From contig OZ237753.1 in assembly GCA_965178125.1 (NCBI GenBank), positions 310,001 through 374,000 on the forward strand: a stretch of DNA of 64,000 nt. Direction: 5' to 3'. This DNA is from Bilabrum cf. latius. Taxonomy: Eukaryota. A model generated the notes under the pieces. It had not been told where the DNA came from, did no database searches, and worked only from the letters and a program-made list of their open reading frames with translations. This document shows, piece by piece, positions 1-64,000 of the stretch. The number at the start of each line of letters is the position of its first letter. Position 1 is the first letter of the stretch. Position numbers and translations under genes: made by a program.

Positions 1-3000
1 CTGCCAGCAGAACATTAAAGATGCGAAGCAACCTTGACACCATTTGGTCCTGTCGCATGTCTTCGTTCGGGCCTTTGTGCACCGCGCGATGCTTCATGCC
101 ATCGGTGCCGAACAGTGTTACGGTCCTCGGGCGTGAAGCGCCGCTCCCTTCAATCTTCACTTTCGCAATCATCTGAATAACTCCAATCCTCGGCCGGATT
201 TCCAGTAGATCGCTTGGAGCGCCGTCAGCGGTGCCACCAAAGGAGACTCGACAGTCGAAGCCTTCCCGTTCGGCTACGGCTACAGCGGCTGAATTGTCGC
301 TGGGCCAACCACTGGTCACGTACCCGGCACTCTCGATTCCAATACCAGCCCCTGTGCTTGGATCTGCAGAGCGGCTGTCTCTGCTGTGCTCATCGACAGC
401 GGTCAAGAAGCTGCTGAGCGCCACTGAGTTCACCCCGTCAGCATCCATCTCTGCAGTCGCAGTGAACACGGGCAGATGCCTCAGCAGGTCTCTGCCTCGC
501 AATTCTTCCATCAGTACGAAAACAGATCGCATGCCGCCCGAGGAGAGCCCAGCGCTGGCGCGAGTCGGCTTCCGGCCAGAGCGCGACGACTGCCCTTTGC
601 CAGTGCCACGCGGGTCAATTGCATTCGTAAAGTCGCCCCCGTCAACGTCACAGAGGACCTCTTGCTTGGATAAATCTAGCATCGAGCTCCGGGGATCGAT
701 CTTTTTCTGGTCGCGCAGAGCGATGGCAATCGACGCTGCCCAGCCAAGTCTAGCAACTGCAATGCCACGTGTGACGGATGCTGACCCGCGGCTTGCACCA
801 GTAATGATGTCCCGACTTCTTCTTTCCGCAACAAGCATGTCTGACGTCACATCACTCTCCTTCATCCCTGCTGTTGCGAACGCGTGCTACAGAAGTGCCG
901 GCAACGTGCCGTACGTCCTTCGCACCAACATCTTCGTCAGAAGCCCGGGGATAAGCCGCTGGATAAACTCGCTCCTCTGCCGGTCCATCGCGGCAAGCTG
1001 TTCTGCTGGCAGGGGCACGTACTTATCGGAGGCTGCGTCGGCAAAGAGCCTCACAGCTATCTAGTTCGCTGCCGGCAGCATGATGCGTACCGGCAAATGC
1101 CGCAGCGCAGACGCGGCTTCTTTCGCGACGCCAGCGTAGCCTCCAAGCTCAAACACAATCTGCAAGAGACAGAAGAGGCTACCGAGCTCTACAGCCGCCA
1201 CTGGGGCCCCCTCCATAGCACGGACATGTTCCGAAGACAGAAGCGGAGTCGATCCTGCCATGCTGGAGCTTGGCTGATTATCTGCCAAGTGAGCGGAATG
1301 CCGAGGTTGCAGGGGCAAGACACTCGGAGTCTACAAGGCAAGAAAGCGCCCGTAGCTACTCACAGCAATTAAGGCTGCCTCCTTGTGCTATCGCATCAGT
1401 CCGCCTAGCCTGGTGCTGAACTGGGTGACGAGAGTTCTCAAGTTGCCCATGGACCGGTAGACGTCGTTGTAGTGCATGTCAGGCATGACCTGCTAGAGCC
1501 TCTCGACCATCGCGTCTCTCGACTATTTCCATGCCACTTGTGCCTCGTCTATGAGCTGGTTGAGACTCTTGTCCGAACCCCTTTGCCTGTTGCGCTGCTC
1601 CAGCAAAGCTTTCTTTCTCAAGTTCAGGTCATCGAACTCCCTTTTCATTGTATACAGGTTGTTCCGCAGCAACGTATCGTGCACAGAACGCTATTTCTCG
1701 TACAATTGGTGCTACCCTTGGAAAGACGAACTAGCGAATACAGACTCAATCCTAATTCGACATGCGTCTGCGAATTGTGCGGCGTGCAAGTGCCCCACGG
1801 CCTGCATCGCACGCCACCAACCGGCTTCTGCAGCCATGCTGGCACTCTCCCTCGATTGGCTGCAGGGTGTTGACTCCGCAGGAGTGTCCTGCCTTACCTT
1901 GCCCAAAGCACGCAGAGCTCTGGTTGCAGCCGACAGAAGCTCGCGCGCCTCATCTGCAACGGATTGCCCTGCATCGCCTATGCTAGTAGCACCATGACCC
2001 TAGTAGCCCTCTGCGGTACCTGGAGCAGGCGGCTAGTTGGCTAGACACCGTAGTCTGTGCAACTTAGAGACGTGAGATTCAACCTCCAGGGGCTTAGACG
2101 TTGAAAAGTGCGAGTCTGCGAATCGCGTCGCTGCGCCCGTGTCACCGGCTCCAACCACCTGTGATACAGCTAGAATACCGTCGTGGGCTCTGAGCAGGCG
2201 AGCTGCTGATTCCGCAAGCTTAGCCTGCCTCGCAACGTACATAGGGCTTTGCCTCGCCCGTAAGTAGCCTCCGGGCAGCAGCGCCTGAGCTGTGGCAGCA
2301 AAGGATGCCATGGCACTGCTTCGAGTCAGCAACCTCGCCGTCTTGTGAGCTGCGGCCGATGACCCCCTTGGATTGAGCAGATAGAGGCTTGCAGCTCCTG
2401 CGCTCGAGTTTACTGAAGCCTAGCATGCAGTCTGAAAGGCAACAGGCAGTTCAAAAGTCTCGCGCTTGCCGCCATTTTGTGAGCTGCGGCTCCACCACCG
2501 CAGCCCAGATGTGCTTCCCACCTCGGCGTTGACAATGGAACCAACGCCCATACTAGACCCTGAATCGCGAGCAGGTGCAACGATTCCAGCCACGGGGAAT
2601 CGAGCAGCCGAGCAAGACGTTCTAAGTGAGTCCAAAAGCATCAAACGCGATGCATTGGGTTGGCTTGTAATGCAGTTCAGCAGTTCGAATGTAGACCCCG
2701 AATCGCTGAGGGCAGTCAACGCCACGGAATCCCAACGATTATGGGCATGGCCAGTGCCGTAGGTTCCACCCTATTGCCCTGAGGGGAGTACACTGACTCC
2801 ATGGGAACCACCTGGCGATGCAATCGCCCCTTTAGGCTACGTCCACTGGCCTAGGGCTCGCAGTGACTGACCAACGCGAGCTGCGTCGCTGCCGTCCAGA
2901 AGCGAAGAAGTCGATCGAACTCCAAAATCGATGAGGTCACTGCTTCCAGATACACCAGGAGAAGTCTTTGCTAGAGCATTCGCAGCGAAAAGCTCGTGCT

Positions 3001-6000
3001 CGTCGCCGACTGCAGCACCGCGGTACTGCATATCTGCAGAGGATCGGCCTTTGGATCCAAGCGCATCCAGCATTGCAAGGTCGTGTATGCCTAGAGCAGC
3101 AGAGCTCATGCACTAGAGAAACGTGCGCGACCCAGACTCGATGCCTTGGAATCGGCTGCGGGACAATGCCGTCGTCCCTCTGTTGCCTGACAAAATGCTC
3201 TGTGTTGCTTTAACACCGTCAACGCATCGCATCGCCGCGTCATGCAACAGTGCAACTGCTGTCTTCTTCGACTTGGATTTAAGTTTGCTATGCTGGACGG
3301 ACCAAGCTGGCAGGATATGCTGGAGCATAGCAATGGCAGGGAGCAACTGCCTTCCACCTCCCTACTCGCTTGTCATAGATTGCTGCACCTGCTGCAGAGG
3401 CGATCGCCCAGATACGTCAAAGGAGGTTACCGCAGCTACTTCCTGCTCCATCTGCTGAAGATCAACCGAAGCATGCACTGAATCACTGAGCCCACGCGTC
3501 GCTGTGGTCACGTCCAGGTGCAGCCTGTGTGCCGTCCCACAAACAAGGCCTGTGAAACTGTCTCCCGCATAAACTGCGCACCTCTAGGAAAACCTGAGCA
3601 GCTCCGAAGCCTGCTTCACTGCTCGAATCGGTAGCGTGAAACCTGATCTCGCGCTTTGGTGTGCCCAGTGGATGCAAGCGCGCGATTCGAGTGAACGAAG
3701 GGCAAGGCTAGGCACCAGCTGCCCGCGCAGGGCACCCGCCATCTTGATTCCGATAGCATCGGCGTAGGCAAAGTTTCCACCATCAACTTTGCGACTACTC
3801 AGCTTTGACTGCCATTGCGATTGCCCCAGGGCACTTCCAGATGCAAGCCCACCTCTAACATCGTTAAATGCCGCCATCGGTTCATGCGACCAGCTGCCTC
3901 GCTGCACGGATGCAATTGAGTAGCCTTTGGGGCACAAGACCGGGCTGATTGGAGCACTTGCTACTGATACCCCGGCCTCTGGATCTATTAACTCGCTCCT
4001 CTCTCCGCATGAAACGTGCGCGTCGACGCACCAAAGCAGCAAGCTGAGCGCTTGCCCTCGCATGCAGCACCCCCATGGACTCCTGCCGAACAACGAAGCC
4101 CCATCAAACACAAGCATGTCTCTGGTAGCCTTGACAGCATCTCGTACCTCTGCGCGGAGCTTGCTGGGGTCATCAGGCGGATAGTAAGGGTTGCCCTCTC
4201 TGTCCATCTGTGGCAACCAGTCACCGCTGGAACGCAGCCGCAGCACCGCTCTCGCTGACGCTGCAGATGTGAAGCTGTCCTTGTCATCCAAGCACTGTGG
4301 GCGCAAATGCACGGGAAGAAGCCTAGCGACCCAATACAGGACACTGGGCAGGTAGTCCACGTCTAATGGCTTCGTTGACCACCCACCAAGCGTCTTGAGG
4401 ATCAGCAGAAGAGGAGGAGAGGAGTCAATCGGCTGTACAACTGGAGGGACAAACAGCATGGATGATCTGGATGATCCTAGAGCCATCGGCGTGTCGTGCT
4501 ACTCTCCAATGATCGCCACATCAGCTACAGCGAATGTAGCGATACTCTCAGTAGATAGTACACTGTTGCAGTCGCGATGAGTGGCGACCTAGGGGACGGC
4601 ACTGAGCATGTGCAGAGTTGGCTCGGCACAGTGTGCAAGCAACATCCCCGAGACGCTTCCGCCGAGCGAAGCGCCCGTCGCTGATACCATCAATTCTGAC
4701 GTGATGAAACCAGGCCTGAGCACAGACGTCTGCAAAGCAGTCATCGTGCCGTTTGCTGCTGTAAATGGCACAGTGCTGCCAGCCCGTGCAGAGCCGCACA
4801 ACGGGAGCTGCAGATCGGGGAATTTCTTGTCAAAGCTCTGAAGATCGACATCGGTGGCAGCCAGTGCCTGTCTATAACGCCGGCAACTGGTGTTCAAAAT
4901 GATGCTCCTGCACTACTGGAACCTGACAAGCTGCATGATAGCAGACTTGGCCGCTGCAAAGCTTTCATTGCCCCCCAGCTCCCTGAACGGCATCGCCAGG
5001 TCTAGCCTCAACTAGAGCTCAGCCAAGACACAAGATCGTGGGGCGGCTGGCCACTATCCAAATGAAGCTGACCCGGCCGCAGAGCGGGACTCGGCCGTTG
5101 ACATGCGTCGCTGTAGCACGGGCTGGTCTGTTGTTTGAGCTGACACGGCCCGCGACGTTGCCTTGACCGGCACGTTGACGTGGTCAAGAATTCCAGTTCG
5201 CACGAAGTTCTCATCTTGCCTGCCTACCATTCCAGAGAACGCATAAATCATGCCCACAGCTGTGATGGACTGGGTCGAGGTGCTCTCAAAGTATCTCACG
5301 GACCAGCCGGCCTGCACGACAGGAGTAAGGGTCGACGGCCGGCACGTGTACCCGGCGGGACCATCCGATTCCAAGAGCGTCCCACCTGCGATTGCACCCA
5401 CTGACAAGACACCAGCCTCCTGCCGAAACGCAGCAAAACTAGATGTGCGACTGGCCACGTCGTACAGTCCCCAGCTGACCAGCTCCGAAGCGCCCCTTCC
5501 GTTCGCGAGAATGTCCGACCGGCTTGACGCGATTCGAAATGCTGCAGCGATCGTACCCTGCATATCAAATGTGTCAGCCGTAGTTGAAGCCCTGTGATTA
5601 GGTCTATCTCCATCCATTGGTATATGGACTCCAGTCACGATGCCTTGACGCCTACCTGAGCTCTTTTGCCGCGACCCAGATCCTTGCGACGCCAGGCCTA
5701 CTGAGCGGCTGGGGGTGCTGCCCCTAGACCGACGCAGCACCGGTGATCGCTCTTCCTCATCGATATCATCGTGCTGCTTGGCAAGAACCTCAACTTCACT
5801 ATCGTCCTCAACTTCGTCTTCGTCTTCGTCGTCATCGCTTATGCTTGAGTACGTGTTTGCTATCTCAACGGAGCGTAGGGATGCCAGTGCATACGCTTCC
5901 TGAAGGTTAGAGGCCTGTGCAAGAGATAAGTTTCCACCCATATCACTGTTGTGAAAGTCTCCATCAGGGCCGCATAGCGAGGAGTCTACTGCTTTCTAGA

Positions 6001-9000
6001 GCCAATCGGGCAGAAGCCTTGCGCCCGCAAGGCCGATGAGCGAGCCTAAAGCATCGGTCGAGGCACGTAGAGCCGCCAAGCCTTGCTCACCGAGGCAGGT
6101 TCCCCACTTGTCGGCGGCGCCAACAATTCGCGACAAAGAAGCACACCCTCTTTGCACCGCTGCAATGTGCGCCTTGACCGGTGACGTGGCATCAGCGACA
6201 ATGTCGGTCGGCACGACCACTCGCCGCAGGCAATCTTGCATGCTCGCCGGGTCATCCGTCAACACCAGGGACACGACCGAACCGTGAGTGGGATTTTGAA
6301 GCAACTTTCGAATTGTGTCTGACACGACGCAGCTAAACATGCGGATCAAGGTGCAGCTGTTGATCGGATCGCGGTGGGCCTCGGGCACCCACTGGAGCTC
6401 TCGGCGTTGGCTAGAATTATTCGGAGCTAACGATCCAGCAGACTCGAGTCGAAGGGCTGAGAACGACGCTCTCTCCGCGACGCTAGAAAAAGCCATCAGT
6501 GCTCTTGCCAGCACATGGCATGGCAGCGAGCGGCACATAGTCCACTCCCCTTTGATTTCTGCAGCCAAGTCCTTACTGATCCAGCCACCCTCCGCAGCAC
6601 TGGCAGAAGCACCAGCGCCTGACATGGGCTCTTGACCTTCACTGCGTTGACTATGACGAGACCGTTCCGTATCTTTCGTACTCAATAGCTCCTAGGCTAG
6701 TGCAACGACTGTAGATCTGGGGACGCAACCGTCGGGGTCGCACAGGAACTGCGACGCAGCATCTGTACCTCTCCGGCTGTGGACGACCTTCTGCACGCAC
6801 TACAGGCGTTGACCAGCCGTAGACCCCACGGGAGTATCCACTGCCGTGCAGTATAAACGCTTGGGACGCAGCTACCACGCTGCAGCTCGCATTGCAATGC
6901 TTTGGATTGCGCTGGAGAACTACGAACACCGGTTTCTTGCCAAGCTGTTGTGAATTTCAACGTCGTCATCGCTCAAGTCTTGCAGTGGCGCAATGAAAAA
7001 AGCCGAAGAGACAGTGGACAGCAAGTGTATGCATGTGGACATAGTTTCGCCGCCTGCGACAGCTGCCTCCTGACCTGAACTGGATTCTCGACTGCGTACC
7101 AGCTTTCCCGCCGATCCAATGAGCGCTCCTGCGTCCGCCAAACCTCGCAAAAGCTGCTCAATTAGAGTGGCTGCAGGTTCAATGCAGCCCTTGACGAACG
7201 GATCCGAGGCTATCTGGATGCCATCGGAATTACAAACCGGCTAGCAATTTAGAGTGGCCCCGGCATGCGAGACCGCGCTGAGCAGGGAAGCAAGCAAACT
7301 AGGAGCTACACGCTCTAGAGCAACGTAACTGCCAAGCAAAGCAGCTACATCCATTCGATCTTGACTCGGGACGGCCGAACCCGATCGTTTCAGCTACTTT
7401 TCAGCTGTAGCTTTGCCACTTCCGTCGCTGCGATTATTTGGACGAACCAGGCCGCAACTAGCCAGCTTGTCTTGCAGCAGCATTGAGCACGCACCCAGCG
7501 ACTCTACAATTCGGGTTGTCGCTCCAATCGACACTACAAGCGAGCCAAGCTGCATCGCTGAGTACTAAGAGTGCGCGGTGGCTGACGTAGCCAGACCAAT
7601 CAGCCTCACTGCCCTGAATAATGCGGACTCAAACTGCAAGGGATACATGCCGAGCTTGCCCGAGTGCGCGACAAATAGGTCAAACGGAACAGAAGGAGAA
7701 CTCAGAGCATGCGACAGCTTGTTAGCGTGAAATATTCGCTGCCCACAGTATGCTGACTCGGCATTGCGACTGGATAGCACCTCCGCAATGGCCTCAGTCT
7801 GCTGAGACGCAAGTGTCAGATTGCAGGATACTCCCAGTGTACCATTCGTAGAATCGTGCTGCAAAATAGCCTGCATTAGTTGCCTGGTAGAGTCCTTGGC
7901 TGATCCAGAGCCAGGATCCATCGATACCTGCGGCCCAGCATCTGTAAGCCCCGCGCAAACGTCGGCAAACGTCTAGCCAAACGGTAGCTGCGGCTGTCCA
8001 GGCGAAAACAGAGTTATTTCGGCCTATCCAAAGGCTAGGCAATGGGCCAAGTCGCCCCGTGCGAGGAGAGAACAAATATCTCTGACCAGCTTGCTGCGAT
8101 GCAGCTTCAGGCTCGGCAGCATTGGGATATCTCGCCATGCTACACCGGTCCCAATGGATTCCGGGGATTGGTGGCCGGCCCGCACAAGCATAGCAGCAGT
8201 AGTCTCTGCAATGCCTCGGCGGAGCAAGCGCGCCTGCGGTGTCGATCCAACCGCGGCAAGCAAGACTGCTCCCTGTCGTACAACGCTCGTTCTCAACAGA
8301 GCTCCTGCTTCTTCTTTTACGGAGCCCTCGCGCGACGCATCTTTAGGGGCAACTGCATTTACTTGCAGAAGCTCTACGCCAGTCTGCAGCTGCTGAGCAT
8401 CGCCCCAAAGCGATTTTGCTACTCCGGATGAAGCTGGCACAGGAATGGCTGAGGCGCAAGCCATTTGTCGCATTGACAAAAAGGCTTCATCACACTCATC
8501 AGACAAGGTTGTAGTTGACTTCATGTCATCCCATACTCGCTAGATTCTCTTCAATGGCGCATTGAAGTGTCCTGATGAGTCAATCTGGCCAACAACCGGC
8601 TCTGCTTTGCGGACTAACTGAGGGTGACACGGCTTCTACTCGACCAAAAGCTGCTTTGACCAGCCTTTCTCTACCAACGAGTCCTATGCGGGCTGGCTGG
8701 CTCTTGACCCGCGACCGCCTGTGATTGTAGCCTCAACGATGGCTCGAATCGCAGAGCTGCACGCTGATGCGGTCCTTAAGCTTTCTAGCAAAATGATAAG
8801 GATTCGATTTGCAGCCTGAGTGCCCCAGATGCTGATGATCACGGTGGAAAGAGGTCGATACGGGTCTAGCAGGATAGGTACGAGGATAGAATCCAGCTCA
8901 GCAGGCACTAGCGCGTTGATCTGATCCAGATGTGGCTACGTCGTGGCTGCAGACACATGATTTCGAACTGGGTGCGATACCAGCGTGACCAACCTCCGAG

Positions 9001-12000
9001 CCTCTGCACCACCGTGGCAATTTGTAGCGGCTAAACGGTATAGTTCCCTGCGGGCCTTAAGTCTCATGCTTCCTGTGCCTTGGATCGAAAGCGCCGCGAG
9101 TGCGCCCAGCCGTGCCTCCATCACGCAGGCATGGACACCGTCAGTGACGGCCAGCTTGTGCATCACGGCTCGATTCAGGACACCATCTTCCTCCTTGCAT
9201 GGCTTTAGGGTCTCATTGTCTTGCATGGTCCACGCAGTATCCACGTACTCCAAGCTTCGGTCCAAGCAGCTTGACCAGGGCGAGTCCTCCGAAGCTGAAT
9301 AGAAAGCATAGGCTGAGGCCTCGCTGAGCGCATCCGTTCCTGGGCGCGGCAACAGGGGCATGCCCGTTTCTGCTGAGCTAGGCATGACGAAGGAGGCCCG
9401 AAAAGAGCTAGAGCTCGCCTCGAGGACCTTGCCCTCCTCTGACACTTTGACCATAGGCAGCGCCACTGCAGATGTTTTGATCCTCCAGCTTTGCTTCAGG
9501 GCTGGTACTCCGAAACAAGAGCATTCTTCCGCTGTTGGAACGTCCCACCCGACTTGCATGACCGCGGCAAGAGATGGAATCATGCGAGCTATCGAGCACA
9601 CCACGACCCGGCTGCATGTAGGTGCGTCTTTTAGTGCTGCAACTGATTCGTCATCAAGAAACCCACCGACATGTCGCATACGATCTACGTTCTCCTTGGC
9701 AAACTAGATCACTCTCACAGCGTCATCCCATGTGGAGCCTGACGCCTCCATGGCCGCAGCTCCAATCAGCGACGCGTACACCGCATGAGCTGCGGGGCTT
9801 CTAGAGATCAGCACAATTTGCTGATGCAAAACTGCACAACTGAGCTTCACTCTCAGAATCAAAGTTTTGGCGAGTGAGTACTTCGGGTGGTGCTCGCCCT
9901 CAATGGTGTACTTGACAGGGTCGGCCGGTGCATTTGCCATGATCGCCTGGGCTACTGGGGGGATACCATCGAATCCCAAACTGCACGCGAATGCAGCAGA
10001 CGCTGCAGCTGAGGCCGTTGCAGGGAGGCAAACGACCGCAGGTTCTTCAATGATCTCCCTGCAGAGGTCTTGAAGGCACTTACCAGCGGTGCTAACCCAC
10101 TTTGCCGCCGAATCCTTGTGCTTGGACAATAGGCTCGCTTGACTTTGGGTAGAGGCTGCTTTGACCGCATGCTTTGCGCCCAAGTAGAGACAGGAGCTCC
10201 CAGATACGCCCAAAACTGACGCAATTGCAGCACCGAGTGTGTCACTGGCGTAGTCTGTTGCTTTTAGAAACCTGCACCCAGCCAGACTCACCGCGTTCGC
10301 AAGCCCGGTGCACAGCAGTCGATTCTCCTCAGGACCGCAGAACTGGATGGATCCAAGCAAAAAACCAACACAGTAAACGCCAGCAGCAATTCGCTCGCTA
10401 TTCTAGTGCTCGTTCTACCCACCTGCATCGATCTATGTTGGATCTGATCCGCTGTCCTTCCTTGCTTTCTTGGGGGGCCTCCCGCCGGCCAAGGGTGCCT
10501 GCGGCTGTGCCGCGAATGCAACTGAGCGGCCGCGCTTTTGACCACTCGCAGCTCCGCTTGCCTTGGAGTCAATGCCATCAATACCGAGCGCAAACATGTC
10601 GTCACCATCGTCCAAGGGAGCGAAGCTACTCGGAGCCGTGGGTGCCTGCGACGCAAGAGTCCCTAGACCTGGCGTCTCGGCTGAAGAAGCCGATTGGGTG
10701 GGTTGCCTATCAAGCTGGCCAGACGTGGGCCGTCTCACGACACTGACACCACGGCGCCCTCGTACAGCACCTGATGCAGCGCCCTCTACAGACCTGCCAA
10801 AACCAGCATCATCGTCCTCCTCATCATCGTCCTCGTCCTCGTCCTCGTCGGTATCGTCTGTAGTACGGCCAGCAGCCACACCTTTCCCTACGCTATCAGC
10901 CCGAGCTCCGGTTCTCCGGACTGCAATACTTACGCCGCGGCGAGCTATTGACCTTACGGGCAGAGAATCCGGCATTTCACTCGAGGCATCACCGCCCGAA
11001 CGGCGCGAACTCCAGCTCAGCGAGCTTGGGTCTGCAAGCTTACAGCCCTTGGCCAATCCAAATTCCAACCGGATCTCTGCAAGAACTTCCGCGCCGCAGG
11101 CGTCGTTCTTTCTGGACCATGCTTCGAGCGTTGAGGTGCTCGATGATAGATGCTCCCGAGCTTGCTTAATGCAGCGGCGGGCCCTGGCAGGAACGGCAGC
11201 CGTCGCCCTGCCTTTCGAAGCATCCAACTCGTTCGCCAACTATAGCGTGTTGCTTGCAAAGGAGATGGCACAGCAGGCTGCCATCTTCTGGATGACATCC
11301 ATAAGGCCAATAATCTTATCAAGTACTGCATCCGATTGCCCGACGCTGTTGGATTGACGATACTGACCACACAGATCAAGAAATCTAGCCGAGGATGCCA
11401 ATTTAACAACACAGCTGCATGCCAGAAAAGCCTCCGTTTCGGATGTCTGGCGGCCTTGAAGGCCTAGAACCACGGCTGGCCATAGGGCAACTAGGCGGGC
11501 GAGCAATGCCTCCATGCTTCCAATGGCAGCCCTGTCAACAGGGTGCAGCATACATCCTAAAGCCTGTCCAACAATCGAAGACACTTGCAGTAGAGTACCA
11601 GCAACCACGCTCGCCTCCTTGCATGGCTGCGACGGCGACGCTGTGACAATGACTGCTTGCTCCCCGGCTGGCATAGTTCCGCCCAAAGTTGCCTGCGTCC
11701 CGTCTGGCCCAGCGCCATATATGCTCGATATCCAGCTGGGCGAAGCACCGACAGTGTCCCGAACAGTGCGAATCGCCCAAGCAGACACTAAAGATCCAAT
11801 CGATGCAATGGATACTGCTTGGCTCAGACTCTCCCGCGGCTTTGCACTATTTTCTGAAGGAAGAGCCACCGGAGATGCATCTGCAAGCAGCTACGAGACC
11901 GCGGCAAAGTGAGCTCCAAGCCCTCCGCTGGCCAATTGTCTGCCGAGGGCTGTCGCTGCTGACGAGGGCATTTCCGCACTGATGAGGGGCTGCAACCGTG

Positions 12001-16689: not shown

Positions 16690-16958
16690 GGGCTGATCCT
16701 ACGCAAACTCAAGCGGAGATGGTCTGATCCTACGCAGGTCTCCTTAACTCACGAGTAAGTGCGCGCTCTCTATCTTTCGCTGCCGTTGCACTTTCGAGCA
16801 AATTAAGCTACTCAACCAGGTCACCGGACTGCATTTCAAACGAAAATTGCTGAAGCAAGTGCTCCATGGCCACTTGATTCGACGGCGGTGCAAGGAAGGT
16901 TCCTTTGAAGTCTAATGAAGGGCGCATTCGGCCTACTTATGGGACGGATTTCGTGAGA

Positions 16959-24245: not shown

Positions 24246-24406
24246 GCCCAACGAGGTAAAATGCTTCAATATCGTCCCTGAGTGCCTGTATGCAACGGCT
24301 AGCGCGCACGCCGGCGGCTGCTCCGGATGGATCCATGGCATCCCTGCTCGCTGCATGAACCGAAGGCATCAGTACGGTGACGCAATTCTGACAAGTAACA
24401 AACAAA
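24246..24406. promoter_or_regulatory. Probable shared bidirectional promoter between the two GH79 genes
   Basis: 161-bp spacer between divergent ATGs. Function is inferred from position only. Confidence 0.45.
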
Positions 24407-26018: not shown

Positions 26019-26372
26019 TCAGCGGAGGGGTGTCTCCTCCACCCACACCCCCCTCATGCTCAGTGGAGGGGTGTCTCCTCCACCCACACCCCCCTCATGC
26101 TCAGTGGAGGGGTGTCTCCTCCACCCACACCCCCCTCATGCTCAGCGGAGGGGTGTCTCCTCCACCCACACCCCCCTCATGCTCAGCGGAGGGGTGTCTC
26201 CTCCACCCACACCCCCCTCATGCTCAGTGGAGGGGTGTCTCCTCCACCCACACCCCCCTCATGCTCAGTGGAGGGGTGTCTCCTCCACCCACACCCCCCT
26301 CATGCTCAGTGGAGGGGTGTCTCCTCCACCCACACCCCCCTCATGCTCAGCGGAGGGGTGTCTCCTCCACCC
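26019..26372. repeat. 41-bp tandem minisatellite, 8 full copies plus a partial copy (TCAG[C/T]GGAGGGGTGTCTCCTCCACCCACACCCCCCTCATGC)
   Basis: Units start at 26019, 26060, 26101, 26142, 26183, 26224, 26265, 26306 and 26347. Only a C/T variant distinguishes the units. Confidence 0.95.
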
Positions 26373-28375: not shown

Positions 28376-28530
28376 CGTGATTTTTGTGAGTGATGTGATG
28401 CAAGCGGGAACGGCCCAACTCTAGTGATGACAAGCGTGCACTGCAGTTGCGGACGAAAACGTCAGCTGAACCCTGTCAGATCAGCCAATACAGTACCAGT
28501 AGCCAGTCAGTTAATGCACACTAGAAGCCC

Positions 28531-32446: not shown

Positions 32447-32588
32447 GACTGTCCAAGAATGCCGACCACGCTCGCTCAAATCTCAAAACCGGTTGCAACC
32501 TTTTTTAAAGGCGCGGCGCCTCGCATTCGGTTCCGCAATTCAACCGTTGCACTAACTCGGTCTTTGAATACGTGATAGGTCAACCAAC

Positions 32589-52000: not shown

Positions 52001-55000
52001 CATCCAGTCGAGCTGGTCCCCTTGATGTGGCTCTTCACGGTCCCGTCAGAATTCATCATCAGCAAGAACACAGACCCAGTGTTTGAATTAAGTTCGTCGT
52101 CGCCCGGCGCCGTCACTGCCAAGTCAGGGATGTCATCGCTGTTCAAGTCGCCGACGCCCGCGACACGACGCCCGAAGCCGTCGCCGTCGGAGAGCGTAAA
52201 CTACGGCAGCCCGCCAGTCGCATCGGTAATCACCTGGGACTCAATGACCGCGCCGTAGGGCTGGGGCGATGCGCTTGGCGTCATTGATGGTGTAACATAT
52301 GGACTTACGGAGCTGCTAGGCGTCACAGACGGTGTAGGAGAAAAGCTCGGGGATGCGAGAGGCGCGGAACCGCCCATAAATGCAATGTACACCTCCCCCT
52401 TACCGCTGTCGACGCTGCTTGCGAGGACGAGTAGGTCCACAGTACCGTCCCCGTTGATGTCAGCAAGCGTGTTGCCGATCATTGCCCTGGTACCGAATTG
52501 GATCCGGTCAAAGTTGGCAGAGGAGATTGTCATAACATCGCGCACAGCATCGGCAGCTGTGGACGGGTTCATGAAGAGAACGTACAAGGCCCCAGTGTTG
52601 GACTGCTGTGCCCCGACCTGCGGCAGACTATCGTGGTACTCGGCACTCACCACGAGGTCCTCCACTCGATCGCCGTCCGCGTCGCCTAGAGATGCAACGA
52701 AGCGCCCGAAATAGTCTCCACCTGCTGTTGAACCTGTAGGCAGCGTGCCAGCAGGGACACCCTCTTCACCGTCCTTGATGACTGACACTGGGGCAGTCAC
52801 AGTGCCATTAATAGACAGAGGCGCGATGACTACAGTTTGAGAGTGGCGGGTTCCAATCACGATGTCAATAGGGTTACCTTGCTGCCTCGGTTTGATAAAG
52901 GTAAACGAGTCGCCAATTAAGTACAGCAAAGGCGAACCTAACGACGAAAGGGAAGCAGCATCTACCGTGGCATAGCTTGCCACTGTGTCGTCGACTGCCA
53001 TCATGAAGATGAAAATGCGGCCTTGATTGCCATTCCAGCCGAACTCGCCCACAGCCAGGTCATTCAAGCCGTCCAGGTCAACGTCACCGATCTCTGATGA
53101 CATGCAGTGCCCAAACTAATCGCTCGATGCTATTGTACTGGCTGGGATCCCCCCGATGCCGTTCTCGATAGGCTGCACCGACTTGGCAGTACCGTTCGAG
53201 TGCATCCTCATGATCAAGATTTTATCTCGGCTACGGAAACCGACGACAAGACGCATGAAGTGCGGATCGTCTCCATTGGGCTGCCTGAATGCCTGCGGAG
53301 ACATGCCGAATCCTCGCCTTGAATCCAAGCTTAAGTCAACCCCGCCGGACGTTGCACTAATCTTCTGGTGTTCCCTGATGGTGCCATTGGGGTGCATGAA
53401 TAGGATGTACAGCGCCCCTGTGTCAGTAGTGTCCACTGTTGGACTATCGTCGTCAAATACTGCGGATACTGCAATATCTACGATGCCGTCTCCATCCAGA
53501 TCTCCAATCGTACTTGCATACTGACCAAACACGTCAAAGTCGTCCAGAGAACCGCGTGGCAGGCCGCCCTTGCCGTCTCCAAGCACAGTCGAGGATACGA
53601 TGATGCCAGGCGGCTCGGGCGTGGTGCTCGGTGATGACGAAACGCTGGGAGTGATGCTCGGAGATGGGGAAGTGCTGGGGGTGGTACTCGGAGATGGGGA
53701 AACGCTGGGGGTGGTACTCGGAGATGGGGAAGTGCTAGGCGAGGGACTCGGGGGAATACCCCCGAGGAAGATCACAAAGGCCGCATCGCTGTCGAGGGCG
53801 CCCACCACGAGGCTGGTCCTCCCGTCTGATCCGAGCCCGCGGATACCTGTAGCCGGCCCGAACTTACTTCCTCCAGCTACAAGTCCGCTCAGCCCTGTCG
53901 TCAATCTCGTCAGCTTGACATGACTCTTAACAGGTACCGCATGCGTGCCGGGATTGAGGTACAGGATGTACAGAGCCCCCGAGTTCGGCCCGGCGCCATT
54001 GTCCGATTTTGCTCCTACCAGCAGGTCCTCAACACCATCCCCATTGAGATCTCCGCACTTGCCCAGCTGACCAAACTCAGAACCTGTCCCGATGCTTCCG
54101 GATGGCATTCCTCCGGCTCCATCTGCAATCAGCTCCACTGTGCCCGGCTCGACGCGTCCGTTGGGTGCGAGGACGAAAAGGACAACCCTGTCTGGGTTCT
54201 GTGCACGTACTGCTAATGTGCTCGCGTTTCCTTCGCTGCGCGGGCTAAGTACAACAATACCGGATCCAAATTGAGTCGTTCCAACAGACATGTCCACTAC
54301 TGAGAGAGGCGAACCGAGGCTGCTGGGTACAAGTTTCGTCAGCGATCTGACCGTATCATCCCCTTGCATGAAGAGCACATACACAGCCCCGTCATTGGTA
54401 CCTGGTGAGTGGCTCTGATGAGCTGCAACGACCATGTCGTTGAGTCCGTCGCCGTCAAGATCCCCCAAGCTGCCATGAAGTTCAGTTCCGAAACGATCAC
54501 CGTTAGCGATTGTGCCGGCTGGTATACCATTCTGCCCATCTTTGATCTGGACCGTGTGAACGACCGTGGCATTTGGCAGCACCCGCATCACATTTACCGC
54601 TTGCAAGTTTCTAAAGCCTCCCAGAAGCCGGGGTAGATGCCCTTGGTCACCGTTCGGCTGATCCAGCCGACCGGGCGACCCAAACCATGAGCCGGAAGGG
54701 AAGCTAGGAATGCCACCGCGAGTCGCCGATATCTTCTGATAGGTGCGCACAGTTCCGTTGGAATGCAAGAAGAGCACGTACAGTGCGCCAGCAGAAGAAC
54801 CACCGTCATTATCGTGCCTAGCCTGGACAGCCACTTCGTCGATACCGTCGCCGTCTAGGTCACCAACATTAGCGACGCGCCCACCGAACTGATCGCCGTT
54901 GTCAAGCTCCCCGGAGGGGAACCCTCCTACTCCGCTTGCGATCTTCAGCGCCGACCGCACCGTTCCAACGGAGGCAGGTGAGGGTGAGGGCGTGGGCGAA

Positions 55001-58000
55001 GGAGTCGCGCTGGGCGAAGGGGTCGGGCTCGGCACCATGCCCCCCATGAAGGCAATGTACGTCGCCCCGCGGTCTATGCCACCAGTGTCGTCCATCCTTC
55101 CAGCGAGAGCAAGATCTATGCGACCGTCGCCGTCAAGGTCTCCGATTGGCAAACAGTTCGACAAGACAGCACCACCAGCCTGCACAACGCCATTCAGTCC
55201 TGGAGATAGGTGCGTAAGCTTTATGAAGCTCTTGACCGGATCAGCTGAGCCGCCTGGGTTGAGGAACAGGATAAACACAGCACCAGAATCCGACTAACCA
55301 GAGCTACTGTCCCGTGCTGCCGTGATGCTCAGGTCAACATGCCCATCGCCATCGAGATCTCCGAGGGCGGATGGCACTGCGCCAAACTTGGATCCTGGCT
55401 GAATGACGCCGTTCGGAATGCCACCTTTGCCGGACTCGATCAGCTCTACCGACCCAGTTATCACAGTCCCGTTCACAGAAAGCCTCGCGATTGCGGCAGA
55501 ATCGGATGCAAGCGACGAGACCACCAGATCGACAGGATTGCCAGGCTGCCGCGGAGAAATCGCCCCAAAGCTCCAACCGAAGCCCGGATTTGATAAAACC
55601 CACCCGAGCTAGCTCAGGCCTCCAAATGCCACGTTAGTCAATATGTTAAAGTCTCGCACCGTATCATTGGCGTGCATGAAGAATATGAATATAGCACCGC
55701 CGTTCGGCTGGGGCTCGTCCCAGCCAGGCGAACTTACAGCTAAATCGTTGAGGCTATCGCTGTCAACGTCGCCGAGATTGCCAGCAACTCCCGATCCAAA
55801 GGCACTGTGCGTGGTCAGAACAGTATCTGGCATACCACCATTTCCGCTATAGATCGCCTGCGTGTGAGCCACAGTGCCGTTGGGGCGCATGCGGAGCACG
55901 TATGCGCGACCGCTGGACGTCGTGACGTCGTCAGCACCATACTGTCCGCAGACCAATCTGGGCATATGACCGTCGTCTCCGTATGGCTGGTCAAAACGAG
56001 CGCACCCGCCAAAGTACGACTCGTTGAACTTGGCGATGTCAGCCCCACCTTCCGACGCGGATATGACCTGGAAGCGCTTTACCGTTCCGTTCCGGTTGAG
56101 GAACAGTACGTAGGCGGCTCCGTTATTGGTCGTATCCGGCTCGTCATGCAAGGCCGCATGGACGACGATGTCAGGAATGCCGTCGTCGTCCAGATCACCG
56201 ATCGGGCTGGCTCTGCCAAACTCGTCGTCATCCGAAAGGGTGTCGTTTGGGATACCCCCGAATCCATCGGCGATCTTGACCGCTGAGACCACGGTGCCAA
56301 CCGGAGCAGGTGAGGGCGAGGGCGTGGGGGTGGGGCTAGGCGTAGCGCTCGGGACGGCACCGCCAATGAAGATCAAGTGCACAGCTCCGCTCTGGAAATA
56401 ACCAACGCCACTAAGCCAGCCACCTGCTGCAATTGTAGCCCTACCGAAGCTGTCCAGTCCCAATATGGTCGTGGGAAAACTTACGCCTGACCCCGCAACC
56501 CAGCTCCCGCTCAGCACCGGGTCCAGCCTTGTGATCTTCGTGTAGTCCCTCACCGGGTCAGTCGACCCTCCCGGGTTGAGATACAGGATATAGATGGCTC
56601 CCGATTCTGTCCCTCCCGTACCGTCTGATCTAGCACCCACAAGCAGGTCCTCCACACCGTCTCCGTCTAGATCACCGCATTTGCCCACTTGGCCGAAGCT
56701 GGACCCGGCCTGCACGCTCCCATCCGGCAAGCCCCCTGCATCGTTGCCCACAGTCTCTAGTGAGCCGAATATCACTCTCCCGTCGCTACCAAGCCGGAAC
56801 AGTGCAATGGACGACAAGCTGGTATCAACTGCCACATCGACCGGATTTCCTTGAGCACGGGGACTCAATGGTGCTATATAGCCGCCAATCGATGTGCTTG
56901 ATGCCACGGGCAGCGCTCCTCCATGTAGCCCACCCCCGGGCGCCGTCGACAGCACGGTATAGTTTTTCACCGTGTCGTTCCCATGCATAAACAGCACGTA
57001 CAGAGCGCCGGCATCGGTGCCTGCCCGGTCGTCCATAGGTGCCCCAACAATGACGTCGCTGTAGCCGTCGCCATCCACGTCGCCCAAGCCGCCACTTAGT
57101 CCCACACCCCACAGGCTGCCAGCCTGAATGGACCCAGCGGGCATGCCCCCTTCTCCGTTCGTAATCTTCTGCGTGTGCAACACTGTTGCATTCGGCAGCA
57201 CCCGCATCACATACAGTGTAACGTGCGTCCTTGCGCCTCCTAGCAGCCGAGGCAGGTGCCCATCGTCTCCGAGGGGCTGATCAAGCCGACCGGGGATCCC
57301 GAATCTGTTGTCTGTCATGATGCTTACATCAGCACCACCCTCCGTCGCGGAGATTTTCTAGAAGTCTCTCACAGTGCCGTTGGGGTGCAGGAAAAGCACA
57401 TACATGGCACCATTGTCTGTGCCACCATCGTCATCACCTTGGGCATGCACAGCTATTTCATCTATTCCGTCGTGGTCCAGGTCACCCACGTTCACCACAC
57501 GGTGCCCAAATTGGTCAACTGCGCCCAACTCTCCGCTAGGAAACCCTCCTATTCCGCTCGCCACCTTCACCGTCGACACCACCGCACCATGTGCGGCAGG
57601 CGACGGTGTGGATGAAGGCGAGGAAGTCGCGGATACTGATGGTGTTGGAGAGGCCGATGCTGTGGGTGTAGGAGACTGTGTCGGAGAGGGGCTCGGGACA
57701 GATCCGCCGAGAGTGACTACGTACACTGCTCCACCCTGTGGGCCTATTGTGTCGTCTGCGGGAGCCCCAAAGACGATGTCCGTCCTCCCGTCCCCATCCA
57801 CATCACCCAAACCAGCAACCGGACCAATCCAGGAGCCAAGTGGTACCACCCCAGCAATTCTAGGCGTCAGCACAGTGATAACGGTATAATTCCTGACTGG
57901 ATCAGTTGATCCACCGGGGTTCATGTACAGAACGTACACAGCTCCCGAGTCAGCACCCCCTGTGTCGTCCAGAAGCGCACCCACCAGCAGGTCCTGGATT

Positions 58001-61000
58001 CCGTCCCCGTCCAAGTCACCGCATGGTCCAATCTGCCCAAACCCTGAGCCCGCTTGAACGCTGCCCGTCGGCATTCCTCCAATCCCATTGCCAATCAGCT
58101 GTACCGACCCTGGGATGGCCGTCCCATTCGCTGCGAGCCGAAACAATGCAATCGTGTTGTTGAACCCCGTACGGAGCGCTACATCCACAGGGTTGCCGGG
58201 CAAACGAGGGGTCAGCGCCTCTACTCCCCATGAGAAAGCAAACGGCCCAGCGCCGCCCAGTGCGCCATCAAATGATCCTCCCGGACCGGGCTGCAGCAAC
58301 GTGTAATCTCTCACCGTGTCGTTCCCACGCATGAATAGCACGAACAGTGCACCTGAGGTGCCGTAGCCCGGAGCACTCACGATGATATCATTTCGCCTGT
58401 CCCCGTCCACGTCACCTAGCTAGTGGCTGCTGATGGCACCCGTGAATAACGCCCCTGCCGGTATAGATCCGGTTGGCATCCCCCCTATACCGTCTGCAAT
58501 CCTTTGCGTGTGTACAATAGTGGCATTCGGCAGCACCCGCATCACGTACAACGCGTTGGGCCCCTCAGTCCCCGCAAGCAGCCGGGGCATGTGCCCGTCG
58601 TCGCCTAGAGGCTGGTCCAGGCGTCCAGGGATACCAAAGTAAATGTTTCCCGTGTACTCCTGAGTGGCATTTGCATCCACGGCCGTAATCTTGTTAAAAT
58701 CCCTCACTGTACCATTTGAGGACAGAAATAGTACGTATATTGCACCGGCATTGATCCGCCCAGTGCTATCGCCAATGGCCTGCACCAGCACCTCATCGAT
58801 ACCGTCTCCATCGATGTCTCCTCCACTTGCCACTCGGTGACCGAAGCGGCTTTGTCCGTGAGAAAGACCCGCCGGCAGACCCCCGAGGCCTTCGCTGATT
58901 GCTGTCACGGATAGCACTGATCCGGGCTCGCCGGGAGCCAGGGCTGTGGGAGATGCTGATGGCGTGGGTGAAGGCGTGGGCGAGCTGCTGGGAGTAGGGC
59001 TTGGGCTTGGTGACGCGAAAAAGGCCGGCCCTACGCGGATCTGGAATATGTACACGGCACCCGCCCTGTATGCACCGGTGCTATCGAACCATGCGGCCGC
59101 AGCCACGCTGAGAGACTGACCATCCCCATCCATGTCCCCCATTACCGCTAGCGCAACGCCTAGGCGGGAGTCATTCATCGTCAAGCTGTTAAGTGCTGGT
59201 ACAGTTGTTGATGAGATCTCCTGCAGTCCAACCGCCAAGCCGTCTGATCTACGCAGCTGCATGATGTACATGGCACCTCGCTTCGAGCCGCCGTTATCTG
59301 CGGTAGACGCGCTGACAACGATCTCAACCAGATCATCGCGTTCCAGGTCACCAAGAACAGCGATCCCTGCACCGAGGCCGCCGTTCGCGTTGAACGTGCT
59401 CGGTCCATACCCCCCGTTCGAGTTCGAATAGAGAGTCGAATTTCGGACGTACAGGCTACCGTTCGAGTGCCTGCCAAATCTCACCAGAAGCACACCTCCT
59501 GTTGGAGTGCCGCTGATTGTGGTGGCAGGCGAGCCCAGCATCAGGTCCGGAACGCCGCCATAGTCTAGCGCCGGCATGCTGACAGGACTCCTGAAATAGT
59601 CTAGTGTGGTCCACCGCTCTAGCCCGCCCCCTGTGGCGGAGCTGATCGTGGTCACCATCCGAACGGTATCATTGGGCGCCAAGTGCAAAATGTAAGCCGT
59701 TGGGGAACCAACTAGAGTAGTTGTGACCACATCCAGCAGCCCATCACCATCCATGTCGTCTACACCGCCTATAGCAAAGCCAAGCAAGCCCTGCGATGGA
59801 ATTAATCCAGATGGCAAGCCGTTGACACCGCTCGAGATGCGCAGGTGAGAGTGCACCAGGCCGGACGAATTGAGCCGCAGCACGTGCAAGGCCCCTTCGT
59901 TGGAATTGAATGCACGCTCACCAACGAACAGCCTCGGCATGCTGGGGTCATCTCCGAGAGGCTGGCCGCTGGGCAAGCTGCCCATGCCTATCCCGAGATT
60001 ACCGGCAAAATCTGTATCAAAGCCGCTGTTGGCATCGGTGCTAGTTGCAGTATCCTTGGCAATGACGCTGTAACTCATGACACTCCCGGATGAGTCCATG
60101 AAGCAGACATAGATCCTGCTTAGACCCGATAATACAACAGCCCCCACGGCCAGATCGTCAATGCCGTTGCCATCCAGGTCGCCCACGTTCGCGATCTCCC
60201 GTCCGAAGCGATACTCACTACCCAGCAGTCCGGAAGGCAGCCCGCCTTCGTTGTTCCGGATAGCAGTTAACCCCATGACAGCCCCGTGGGCAGCAGGGGA
60301 AGGTGAGGGGCTAGCAGTTGTCGATGGAGAGATGCTGGGTGTTGGGCTGGGCGTTGGGCTAGGACTCGGGCTCGGCACCACCCCCTTGATGAAAATGACG
60401 TGGACTGCCCCCCGGTGCGTCCCGCCGGTGCTGTCTTCGTGGGCACCCGCAACAAGGCTGGTCGTGTTCAGACCCCCTAGGCCGCGCACGCCAGCAGCTG
60501 GGCCCATATGAGTCTGGTCGTCCAAGGTCGGGCTTAACACTAGATTCAATTTTGAGAGCTTCACGAAGCGCTTCACCGGATCTACTGACCCGCCTGAAGT
60601 GAGGTACACGACGTAAACTGCGCCTGCGTTAGTGCCACCGCTGTCGTCCCAAGGAGCACCGATCAGAATGTCCTCCACCCCGTCTCCGTCCAAGTCACCG
60701 CACTTGCCAACGGAGGTGATGCCAGCCATCTGGCCGCTCGGTACGCCTCCCAGACCTTCCCCAATGAACTCAAAGGAGCCGGGAATGGCGGAACCATTGC
60801 GGGCCAGCCGAAATAGCACCACCTGATTGATGGTTAGATCTGCGAGCAGAGCAATGTCCACCGGATTCCCAGGCAATCTAGGGCTTAACGCCATCACGGA
60901 AGTTGACAACCGGTTTCCGGAATCGGCCCAGGTGCCCACAAGGCTACCACCATTGCCACCATGCAGCACAGTGAAATTCTTCACCGTGTCATTCGCGCGC

Positions 61001-64000
61001 ATCATGAGGACGTATAGGGCACCCGAGTCCAAACCTGCCTGATCGTCTAGGGTGGCGCTGACCATGATGTCATTAAAACCATCCTCATCGATGTCGCCGA
61101 GATCCCCCGAAATGGCCACGCCGAACCGAGTGTTGAACAGGGAGTTTCCAGCCGGCATCCCCCCCTCCCCGTCGGCAATCCTCTGCGTGTGCACCACCGT
61201 GGCATTCGGAAGCACCCGCATCACGTACAGCACTCCACCGTCTTCATACCCCCCAAGCAGCCTGGGCAAGTGGCCTTGGTCCCCTCGAGGCTGATCGAGA
61301 CGACCAGGGGTACCAAAGCGCGGTTCCAAGTCGTCAATCTCGGCCCCTCCCTCAGAGTACGATATCTTCTGAAAGTCTCGTACCGTACCGTTGGATCGTA
61401 GGAAAAGCACGTACATTGCGCCCGCATTGGTAAGCGAAGGGTCGTCACTCATCGTCGCCTTGACAGCCACTTCATCTATTCCGTCGTGGTCCAGGTCGCC
61501 CACGTTCACCACGAGGTCTCCAAACCTGTCTCCATCGCTCAGCTCTCCAGACGGAAATCCGTTCAGCCCGCTGGCGATCTTTACCGTGGAGAGCACGGTC
61601 CCGAGGTCAGGCGAGGGACTGGCCGATGGCGTCGGGGTAGCAGAAGTGCTCGGAGTTGCGGAGGGGCTTGGGGTGCTGGACGCGCTTGGGGTCGGGCTCG
61701 GGGTAATGCTTGGAACGGGCCCGCCGCCCATCATCATCACGAAGCCCCTTCCCGCGCGTTTTGAAGTTCCAAACGATTCCGGTGCACCCACGAATAGGTC
61801 TGTCGTGAGGTCCCCATTGACGTCACCGAGTGCTGCGATGCTACTGCCAAAGAAGTCGTTCTATGCGAGCGACCCATCTAGCTCGCCGCCAGAGCCAGTC
61901 TGTAAAAGTGGATGGGTCTCCACGGCATGTCCAGTGCTGTTGATGCGAATCATAAAAATACCGCCCACGTCAGCCTATCCGGGGGCATCTCTGTTGGGCG
62001 CCCCCACAGCGATCCATGAGTCAAAGGAACCGTCTAAGTGGCCCAAGTGCTCGACGCTGGAGCCAAAGTAATCGAAACCATTCAAATCAAACGAGAAACC
62101 ACCGCTTTGTTCTGCGATCAAGGTGAAGTGAGACACACCCACAGTGGTGTCGGATGCAAAGGCGATCACCACACCCCCGTTCCAAATGTCACCATTGCTG
62201 CTAGTATACGATGCCCCTGCAGCGAAATCGTCCCTTCCGTTCCCGTCCAGGTCGCCCAGCCCAGCTAGTGCGGTGCCCAGGCGATGCACAGGTTCAGGGA
62301 GACCGCTTCCGCCGCTAGTGTTGAAGCTGTGGTGGTCGAGCTCGATGGTCCTGTTGACGGTGTCCGTGTTTGCGTTCATGAGCAGCAAGACAATGTTGCC
62401 TTCGAAGCTATCAGCGCCGGGTGTACCACCCGCGATGTCGGTCACGCCGTCCCCGTTGAAGTCGCCGATGGACGCGACCGACCACCCAAATCCGCTCGGC
62501 AGCGCGCCCACCCCCGCGTTGTTGCTCCTGAGCACGGTGAAAGAGGAAGCCTCACCCGAGCTCTCGTTCATGCGCACGAGGTACGACCTCGATGCGGAGT
62601 TAGCGGATAGGATGACACGAAGGGGCATATTCTAGTCTTCCGCCCAGCCGGGCCGAATCACATCCAGGTCGACCGCGAGATGGTAGCTGCCACCTATCGC
62701 TGTATGCATGGGGTTGTCCGTAGGTACCACTGGTGTGGCAGATTTGACCGTACCGTTGCGGTGCAGCAGCACCGTCCAGGCCTGACCTCTGCTGCTGACA
62801 GCTCCGACGTCGGCAAAAGGCGCTCCGATCATGACGTCAGGGACCCCATCACCATCAATATCTCCGATGGGTGCCGCACCCGTCGCATAAGAGTCATTGA
62901 GCCCGAGCACTACATCATCGGGCCATCCGCCGCGGCCCAATCTACCAATCTCAACGATCTCAGATACGCTGCCAATCGGGGCCGCAGCAGCGGAGGGAGA
63001 AGCAGAGGGCGTTGGGGAAGGACTGGGGCTAGGCAGGGCGGCGGCGCCTCCCACGCTGATGATCGCAGCGCCTCCGTAGTTAGTGCCACCGTAGTCTGCC
63101 TGGGGTAAACCAGCGAGGATCTCCCTCCGCCCGTCTCCGTCAAGATCCGCGACGGTGTCCAGCGGCACCATGCGGGCTCCAGCGGGGAGAGTGGACAGAG
63201 CGGGAATACTTCTGTCCAGTTGGTCCACGCTCTTCACCGGGTCTGTCTCATTCCCAGGGTTCATGTACAGAATGTAGATTGCCCCGCTGCTCGAAGCATA
63301 GCCGTCCGCGCTCGCGAGCAAGTCAGCCACGCCGTCTCCGTCCATGTCTCCGGCTAGGCAAAGGGACTCACCGAACCGATCGCCGAGTGAGTAGTCAGTG
63401 TTCAAGATGCCACCGACCCCTCGATGAGCCACTTGGACGGCAGAGCCAGGCACGACGCCACCGTCGTAGCCCAGTCGGAACACAGCGATAATGCCGTCGT
63501 CTATCTAGACCCTGTAGAAGACAGCGACGTCCACGGGATTGCCTTCCTGCCTCGGGGGCATGGCGGCGATGGCGGCGCCAAGGTCTTCCCTGTCAGCACC
63601 CGGGAGGGAGCTGAGGCCCTCGCCCGCCAGCATGCTCAGCCTGCGAGCGCTCTTGACCGTGTCGTTGCCGTGCATGAACAGGACGAACAGGGCACCATCG
63701 TCCGTGCCGTTCATGTCCGCCTTGGGGGCACCGACGAGCAGATCGACGAAGCCGTCTCCGTCCACGTCTCCAATGCCCGCCTCAACTGCGGAACCGAACT
63801 CGTCACCCGGTGCTATGGTGCCTGCCGGAAGGCCGCTCACATTGTTCTGCAGGATGGTGCGGTTCATCATCGTGCCGTTCGGCCAGAGGCGAAGGACCTG
63901 CACTCGGCCAGACAGTCTGCCGTTTGCGTCAGAGCCATCCTCTCCGACTGCAAGGCGCAGCAGCTCAGGACTCTCGCCGTTTGACTGTCGGAAGGCAGTA
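40087..64000 (-). CDS. Giant FG-GAP (integrin-alpha-like propeller) repeat / REJ / EGF / GPS multi-pass membrane protein, polycystin-1-like, 5' partial, >7,900 aa
   Basis: 27 ORF fragments from 40087 to 63505 share one frame. Every internal stop I checked is TAG, and the final stop is TGA. Many FG..GDxDGDGxxD..VGA repeats, REJ-type motifs (LDARGSAD..WQC, NAPPSSG..GWTD..PLLYRF), EGF CSGHGSC..CMCDDDWFGRGC, GPS CATTHLSDF, and several hydrophobic TM segments at 40400-43640. Confidence 0.85.

Follow-up and report, generated by a model that had tools for sequence, protein, structure and literature searches.

Gene content of the window

The subject of this work is the meaning of the codon TAG in a 64,000-nucleotide (nt) stretch of eukaryotic DNA: positions 310,001 to 374,000 (forward strand) of contig OZ237753.1 in the Bilabrum cf. 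latius assembly GCA_965178125.1. We refer to this whole stretch as the window and give all coordinates within it. A preliminary description, made from the letters alone, had proposed that TAG is read here not as a stop but as glutamine, and every identified gene in the window carries TAG in frame.

Three open frames of exceptional length, of 5455, 7970 and 2463 codons, emerge once TAG is read through. With the standard stops (table 11) the window holds 120 stop-to-stop frames of at least 150 amino acids (aa), the longest of which is 1146 aa. The first giant frame (2..16366, minus strand) contains 50 TAGs and neither TAA nor TGA, and runs off the left end of the window; the preliminary description was right that its breaks are TAGs, but the 25 fragment ends it listed are an undercount. 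The second (40087..63999, minus strand) has 41 TAGs, ends in TGA and runs off the right end. It encodes a protein of more than 7970 aa related to FG-GAP (PF01839, E 5.4e-131), REJ (PF02010, E 5e-18) and polycystin-like proteins: 11 diverged integrin-like FG-GAP propeller modules of ∼440 aa each, joined by Pro/Ser/Thr linkers, are followed by a REJ domain, a GPS-like ‘HLSDFT’ site and a polycystin-like membrane part. The latter bears a TRPQR motif that is conserved across 170 mostly metagenomic homologues; a PDB search with the last 2637 aa gave no match. The third giant frame (32568..39959, plus strand) encodes a fibronectin type III protein (PF00041, E 3.1e-11), with ten TAGs before a terminal TGA. 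Both of these frames, previously described as showing the same TAG-only pattern over 24 kb and 7.4 kb, are indeed free of in-frame TAA and TGA.

Five further genes could be assigned to families. The 26S proteasome ATPase Rpt2 (30951..32445, minus strand) consists of two exons separated by an intron at 32195-32298, and has TAGs at 32028-32030 and 31986-31988; it matches the corresponding subunit of spinach (PDB 8amz_I, E 1.2e-212) and human (E 4.9e-206). A CNOT10-like TPR protein (19747..22566, plus strand; human CNOT10 8fy3_B, E 2.6e-12) has five TAGs and ends in TGA. These two identifications bear out the earlier statement that TAG occurs in housekeeping genes: both are conserved and, the TAGs aside, intact. 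Two heparanase-like genes of family GH79 lie head-to-head: copy a (22752..24368, minus strand; PF03662, E 2.9e-28), which matches human heparanase (E 3e-51), has three TAGs, and copy b (24392..25906, plus strand; PF03662, E 8.1e-30) has one; both end in TGA. The gene earlier called tafazzin is an acyltransferase (26347..28386, minus strand; PF01553, E 1.6e-6), an assignment made here at the level of the family. It has five exons (28262-28386, 28089-28172, 27927-28006, 27768-27839 and a last one reaching up to 27451), a terminal TGA and three in-frame TAGs (27953-27955, 26872-26874 and 26410-26412). Finally, a small spliced gene (29690..30717, plus strand) for which no Pfam family was matched has an intron at 30034-30132 (GT..AG), in-frame TAGs at 29936, 30200 and 30218, and ends in TGA.

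TAG is a sense codon

In the eight coding segments of the window, which together comprise 18,648 in-frame codons, there are 114 TAGs and not a single TAA or TGA. Reading the same strand in its two remaining frames (37,296 codons) gives 337 TAG, 147 TAA and 770 TGA. At these off-frame rates the probability of finding no TAA or TGA in the eight segments has a log10 of -201.6. Likewise, the longest run free of TAA and TGA is 7970 codons in the window, but no more than 787 in 20 mononucleotide shuffles. The restriction to TAG, the improbability of the pattern and the length of the open run together rule out decay or chance as its cause: TAG is a sense codon throughout the window, as had been proposed.

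It could nevertheless be argued that the TAGs are an artefact or the result of decay: systematic C-to-T errors in the consensus, pseudogenes, or TAGs that editing or splicing takes out of the message. Decay would add TGA, TAA and frameshifts, of which there are none in the 18,648 codons. The remaining variants were addressed with contigs from four sequencing runs (X3, X5, X7 and X8), which belong to four studies. Pieces of these contigs that match the window without a differing letter cover, of the 32 in-frame TAGs within 26330-46300, 30 in X3, 20 in X5, 16 in X7 and 20 in X8, all four figures being lower bounds (32 of 688 pieces were listed).

Within 26330-46300, six introns are missing from the contigs of X5 and X7: those of the acyltransferase (four), of Rpt2 (one) and of the small plus-strand gene (one). 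The introns are 82-316 nt long with GT..AG ends, which on the minus strand appear as CT..AC. Run X3 spans 26343-40381 in one unspliced piece without an intron joint, and its depth is flat, about 36-40 in most bins, while that of X5 ranges from 4 to 337. Because of the spliced contigs and the uneven depth we take X5 and X7 to be derived from RNA. Seven TAGs lie under listed spliced pieces without a differing letter: both of those in Rpt2, the three in the small gene and two in the last exon of the acyltransferase (the latter in X7 only). Thus, as far as the contigs show, neither editing nor splicing removes these codons, and an error in the consensus of one assembly is excluded. Retention of TAG in transcripts had been named as a check on the preliminary description, and in X5 and X7, taken as RNA on account of their splicing, the codon is retained. 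One caution concerns X3: this best source of DNA may be the very sample behind the window assembly and hence not independent of it. The relatives described in the next section, which are independent contigs, have TAGs of their own at different positions. We regard an artefact or decay as the least probable of all the alternatives considered here.

Relatives in metagenomes share the pattern

A first scan of JGI metagenomes, with the last 600 aa of the 5455-codon frame as query, found nothing. A second scan identified four contigs (L001-L004) whose best segments are 75-82% identical to the polycystin-like region. Since L001 and L002 are nearly alike in the aligned part, these represent about three further taxa. 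No relative of the polycystin-like region was found among GTDB genome contigs, and relatives in protein collections were, in the searches made here, mostly short pieces.

The five open frames on L001-L004 comprise 5,492 codons, of which 57 are TAG and none is TAA or TGA. Both complete gene ends on L003 are TGA. The TAG-only pattern of these contigs means that the code is common to a small clade.

TGA ends the genes and TAA is not a sense codon

All eight of the identified genes whose 3′ ends lie in the window, including the small spliced gene, end in TGA. For TAA the evidence comes from its absence. If it shared the meaning of TAG, then, scaling by the CAA:CAG ratio, the window should hold 36 in-frame TAAs and the relatives 38.7; neither set contains one. 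TAA is therefore not a sense codon and has not been reassigned together with TAG, which fits a code of the NCBI table 15 type, as the preliminary description had supposed. The feature that marks codes lacking a dedicated stop, use of TGA, TAA or both as sense codons as well, is absent: there is no in-frame TGA and no in-frame TAA.

These counts bear on two alternatives. Under the first, both TAG and TAA would mean glutamine, as in table 6 (many ciliates, hexamitin diplomonads and some ulvophyte algae), with TAA scarce simply because the genome is GC-rich. Consistent with this, every gene ends in TGA and TAA has never been seen as the stop of a verified gene. The shortfall from the expected 36 and 38.7 TAAs, in a window whose off-frames hold 147 of them, makes the table 6 reading highly improbable.

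Under the second, TAG would be ambiguous or leaky in the manner of Condylostoma or Blastocrithidia: a stop at gene ends and, depending on context, a codon that is read through within genes. Indeed, if TAG were the true end of a gene, that gene would look like a frame extending to the next TGA. However, in Rpt2, the sole gene with a conserved C-terminus, TGA follows directly after that C-terminus, exactly where the homologues end, and all eight gene ends are TGA. Moreover, a frame with 50 TAGs requires that UAG be translated efficiently, with near-complete translation at each one. We consider a leaky TAG unlikely.

TAG specifies glutamine

Evidence on the identity of the residue comes from homologues, paralogues and orthologues. 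Among homologues, the column of the first TAG of Rpt2 is Q in 110 of 120 sequences. Similarly, at the TAG in 42712-42714, within the TRPQR motif (‘VVTRPxRLL’), 75 of 84 aligned stretches have Q, the others being E (four), L (two), R (two) and F (one); the stretches were taken from a HMMER search with the polycystin-like region that gave 170 hits, stretches from 150 of which were listed. P0138, a relative of the acyltransferase (89% identical), has Q at the TAG of ‘AAMRxLELQ’, while the other TAG compared lies in an indel region opposite G. In the CNOT10-like gene four of the five TAGs fall within a CAG/CAA poly-Gln run at 22471-22512 (TAG CAG CAG TAG CAG TAG CAG ...). Over 27 columns, from which this run is excluded, the summed log2 odds are +3.3 for Q, -19.2 for G, -23.6 for R, -28.0 for S, -28.3 for L, -36.0 for E and -63.4 for Y: Q leads by 22 bits.

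Paralogues within the window point the same way. One of three pairs between the GH79 copies is TAG/CAG, and among the 11 FG-GAP modules one TAG column is Q in five of nine. The partner-profile likelihood of the modules is -5.1 for Q, followed by E (-10.6), S (-11.0), Y (-84.3) and L (-93.6).

Orthologues were compared in a five-way alignment of the window and L001-L004. Several columns are Q in all sequences except one, and that one has TAG; the TRPQR codon itself is TAG in the window, L001 and L002 and CAG in L003 and L004. In well-aligned columns (at least 5 of 8 flanking residues identical; the L001-L002 pair left out) the non-TAG partner of TAG is CAG or CAA in 25 of 50 cases. As a baseline, Gln is conserved at a rate of 0.66 in this alignment and other residues face Gln at rates of 0.00-0.17. 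The profile likelihood (log2) is -158.4 for Q, -203.3 for K, -224.5 for E and -310.1 for S. A rough hint, with two of the eight genes out of frame, comes from the rate of Gln neighbours, which is 13.0% for TAG, 11.6% for Q, 8.4% for E and 4.9% for S.

Not all TAGs speak for glutamine, and it is here that a reassignment to some other residue has to be weighed. Precedents are Ser (reported for Scotinosphaera), Leu (the rhizarian exLh) and Glu, Lys or Tyr (certain ciliates). The following observations count against Gln. Most TAGs lie in variable columns, including the remaining TAG columns of the FG-GAP modules, where Gly is the most frequent partner. At the second Rpt2 TAG, 98 of 120 homologues have R and three have Q. 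The two other GH79 pairs are TAG/CAC (His) and TAG/GAG (Glu), and one TAG of L002 faces TGG (Trp) in two orthologues. Lastly, when ten trial residues were placed at TAG, the Pfam REJ score was 41.8 bits for Q, 41.4 for S and 40.8 for E, leaving Ser just 0.4 bit behind in a test of low power that hardly separates residues. Set against these are the column odds and the orthologue profile, the four TAGs in the poly-CAG run, and the two near-invariant Q columns that carry TAG; together they make another residue very unlikely. The 50 TAGs of the 5455-codon frame are uninformative on this point because the Pfam, PDB, homologue (3000-9547 aa) and JGI searches made with it matched nothing.

With homologue, paralogue and orthologue comparisons each placing Gln first, the assignment of TAG to glutamine is supported. 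It was the assignment originally made, and the four pointers on which it had been based (the poly-Q tract, the TAG/CAG paralogue pair, the Q column of Rpt2 and the TRPQR motif) all stand.

Placement of the organism

The GC content of the window is 55-67% per 4-kb bin. The homologue cluster nearest to Rpt2 (P0101, 83% identity) holds proteins of Cafeteria roenbergensis/burkhardae. In a FastTree phylogeny the window Rpt2 forms a group (support 0.64) with P0101 and a protein recorded as coming from Symbiodinium sp. KB8. IQ-TREE recovers the same trio within a ten-sequence clade of mostly unnamed sequences (approximate likelihood-ratio test (aLRT) 94.8), itself nested in an 89-sequence clade (aLRT 96.8) that includes an oomycete among its first 30 members listed. 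No ciliate is present among the named proteins of the 120 matches listed, the majority of which are unnamed. The close relatives of the other window proteins are all metagenomic, one being an ocean-sampling record.

These results provide a lead, from one gene, to the neighbourhood of the bicosoecid stramenopiles, rather than a placement. Rpt2 phylogeny had been suggested as a means of identifying the organism: it yields this bicosoecid-side lead but, as a single marker, no firm position. The earlier impression that the genome is unlike that of a ciliate gains support from the GC content, the short GT..AG introns and the Cafeteria-holding Rpt2 cluster.

The protein filed under Symbiodinium sp. 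KB8 (P0019, annotated as RPT2B) groups with the Cafeteria-containing cluster and the window Rpt2, rather than with any named alveolate, and is possibly a contaminant of that assembly. Contigs identical to parts of 22700-32300 come from four studies, in runs that carry at least four different organism labels, and an ‘algae metagenome’ and a ‘protist metagenome’ each contain small shares of the same region. The organism is possibly a heterotroph that is co-cultured with, or contaminates, the sources of other organisms' data sets.

We found no report of a nuclear code with UAG as glutamine in a stramenopile or bicosoecid in open-access papers and bioRxiv. To our knowledge, no change of the nuclear code has been reported in stramenopiles.

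Other features of the window

The GH79 pair (22758-25900) forms an inverted duplicate whose arms, 22758-23542 and 25116-25900, show 97% complementarity along 785 nt. At the protein level the copies are identical across about the last third, whereas the 5′ parts of the genes are far more diverged (79% over 228 nt). The contrast between near-identical 3′ parts and diverged 5′ parts suggests recent gene conversion of the former. The 3′ end of GH79 copy b and that of the acyltransferase flank a tandem array (26014-26372) of 8.8 copies of a 41-nt unit with 98% matches, which overlaps the region of the acyltransferase stop codon.

Two frames are of less certain status. A candidate open frame of 606 codons (16878..18698, plus strand) has three TAGs, ends in TGA and matches no Pfam family. 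A frame of 272 codons (28531-29349, minus strand) has seven TAGs and ends in TAA. TAG makes up 2.6% of its codons, several-fold above the verified genes, and the RNA-like runs cover it at low depth; a genuine gene is improbable here.

For the 5455-codon frame no Pfam family was matched, its last 2000 aa found no PDB match, and no homologue of 3000-9547 aa was identified. Its last residues (window 2-140) resemble the start of a PI3K/PIKK kinase domain, so that the protein may be a very large PIKK; no search confirmed it.

On L003 a frame of 1548 codons (5784-10427, minus strand) with 17 TAGs and a terminal TGA is convergent with the polycystin-like gene. It matches no Pfam family and is not an orthologue of the fibronectin type III gene that neighbours the polycystin-like gene in the window; gene order is therefore not conserved at this point.

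A UAG-to-glutamine code and its possible origin

Taken together, the above analyses make it very probable that the window belongs to the nuclear genome, GC-rich and poor in introns, of a eukaryote in which UAG is translated as glutamine on cytoplasmic ribosomes, that UGA ends every gene seen, and that UAA is either a rarely used stop or unassigned, and not sense. Four points beyond those raised over the residue weigh against this reading. It is based on 64 kb of window and 16.6 kb of relatives. No tRNA genes were detected in the window or on L001-L004, nor was there any Rfam match, and the window does not encode eRF1. No verified gene in the window ends in TAA, the sole such end being that of the doubtful 272-codon frame. 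And the run types are automatic guesses, with X5 labelled ‘RNA? (probably DNA)’ and none of the runs that carry 22700-32300 recorded as RNA.

Codes of this kind are known from other lineages. In the fornicate Iotanema spirale, UAG is glutamine and the stops are UAA and UGA (Panek et al. 2017, PMC5304391). As here, UAG alone has been reassigned, to Gln, and UAA is not a sense codon; a tRNA-Gln(CUA) is predicted for Iotanema and its eRF1 is altered, with a T32G change reported (PMC5304391). Unlike the window, in which UGA stands at every gene end, Iotanema uses UAA as its main stop; it is also an anaerobic metamonad, described from a transcriptome, whereas the Rpt2 of the window groups with stramenopile-type sequences. 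Among ciliates, Protocruzia tuzeti and two phyllopharyngean lineages are reported to have UAG alone as Gln (McGowan et al. 2024, PMC11687900), a code table identical to that found here (NCBI table 15 type). The phyllopharyngeans differ in having a GC content of 27.4-53.6% and UAA as the top stop (PMC11687900), compared with 55-67% and UGA in the window.

UAR as Gln (NCBI table 6) is listed for many ciliates, hexamitin diplomonads, Streblomastix, some Ulvophyceae and Amoeboaphelidium (PMC11687900). These codes likewise turn a stop into glutamine, presumably via a mutated anticodon of tRNA-Gln, but in them TAA is sense, while here there is no TAA in 18,648 + 5,492 in-frame codons. UAG alone is also on record as having changed to Leu in the rhizarian exLh and to Ser in Scotinosphaera (PMC5304391; PMC11687900), and to Glu in one ciliate (PMC11687900). 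exLh and Scotinosphaera share with the present case the uncoupling of UAG from UAA in a nuclear genome; they differ in the residue, Leu and Ser both lying 31 bits under Gln over the 27 columns.

By analogy with other lineages in which UAG is glutamine (as described in PMC5304391), the change would involve two components: a tRNA-Gln(CUA), derived from tRNA-Gln(CUG), that would decode UAG but not UAA, and an eRF1 that would have lost, or been weakened in, its recognition of UAG.

The type of code is itself already known; what appears to be new is the lineage, together with its GC-rich genome and the UGA found at all gene ends. We put forward, tentatively, the broader possibility of a hitherto undescribed, independent and clade-wide reassignment of UAG to Gln in a lineage of heterotrophs with GC-rich genomes, close to the bicosoecid stramenopiles, in which UGA is perhaps the only working stop and UAA perhaps unassigned.

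Nuclear stop-codon reassignments outside the ciliates are few, and those confined to UAG fewer still: Iotanema, exLh, Scotinosphaera and, within the ciliates, a handful of species, according to the account in PMC11687900. Unusual features of the present case are the GC-rich genome, UGA as the sole stop seen, a code common to several environmental relatives, and the ample coding sequence in which it can be followed, individual frames reaching 5,455 and 7,970 codons. There are practical consequences too: gene callers using the standard code would fragment nearly all proteins of this organism and its relatives, and the same DNA is present in runs labelled as several different organisms. A further independent case informs how the meanings of UAG and UAA become uncoupled, what role GC content plays, and which changes of eRF1 and tRNA-Gln are required. 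If an independent origin on the bicosoecid side is true, then the reassignment would have arisen in a genome in which TAG is not rare, a poor fit to codon capture under AT pressure.

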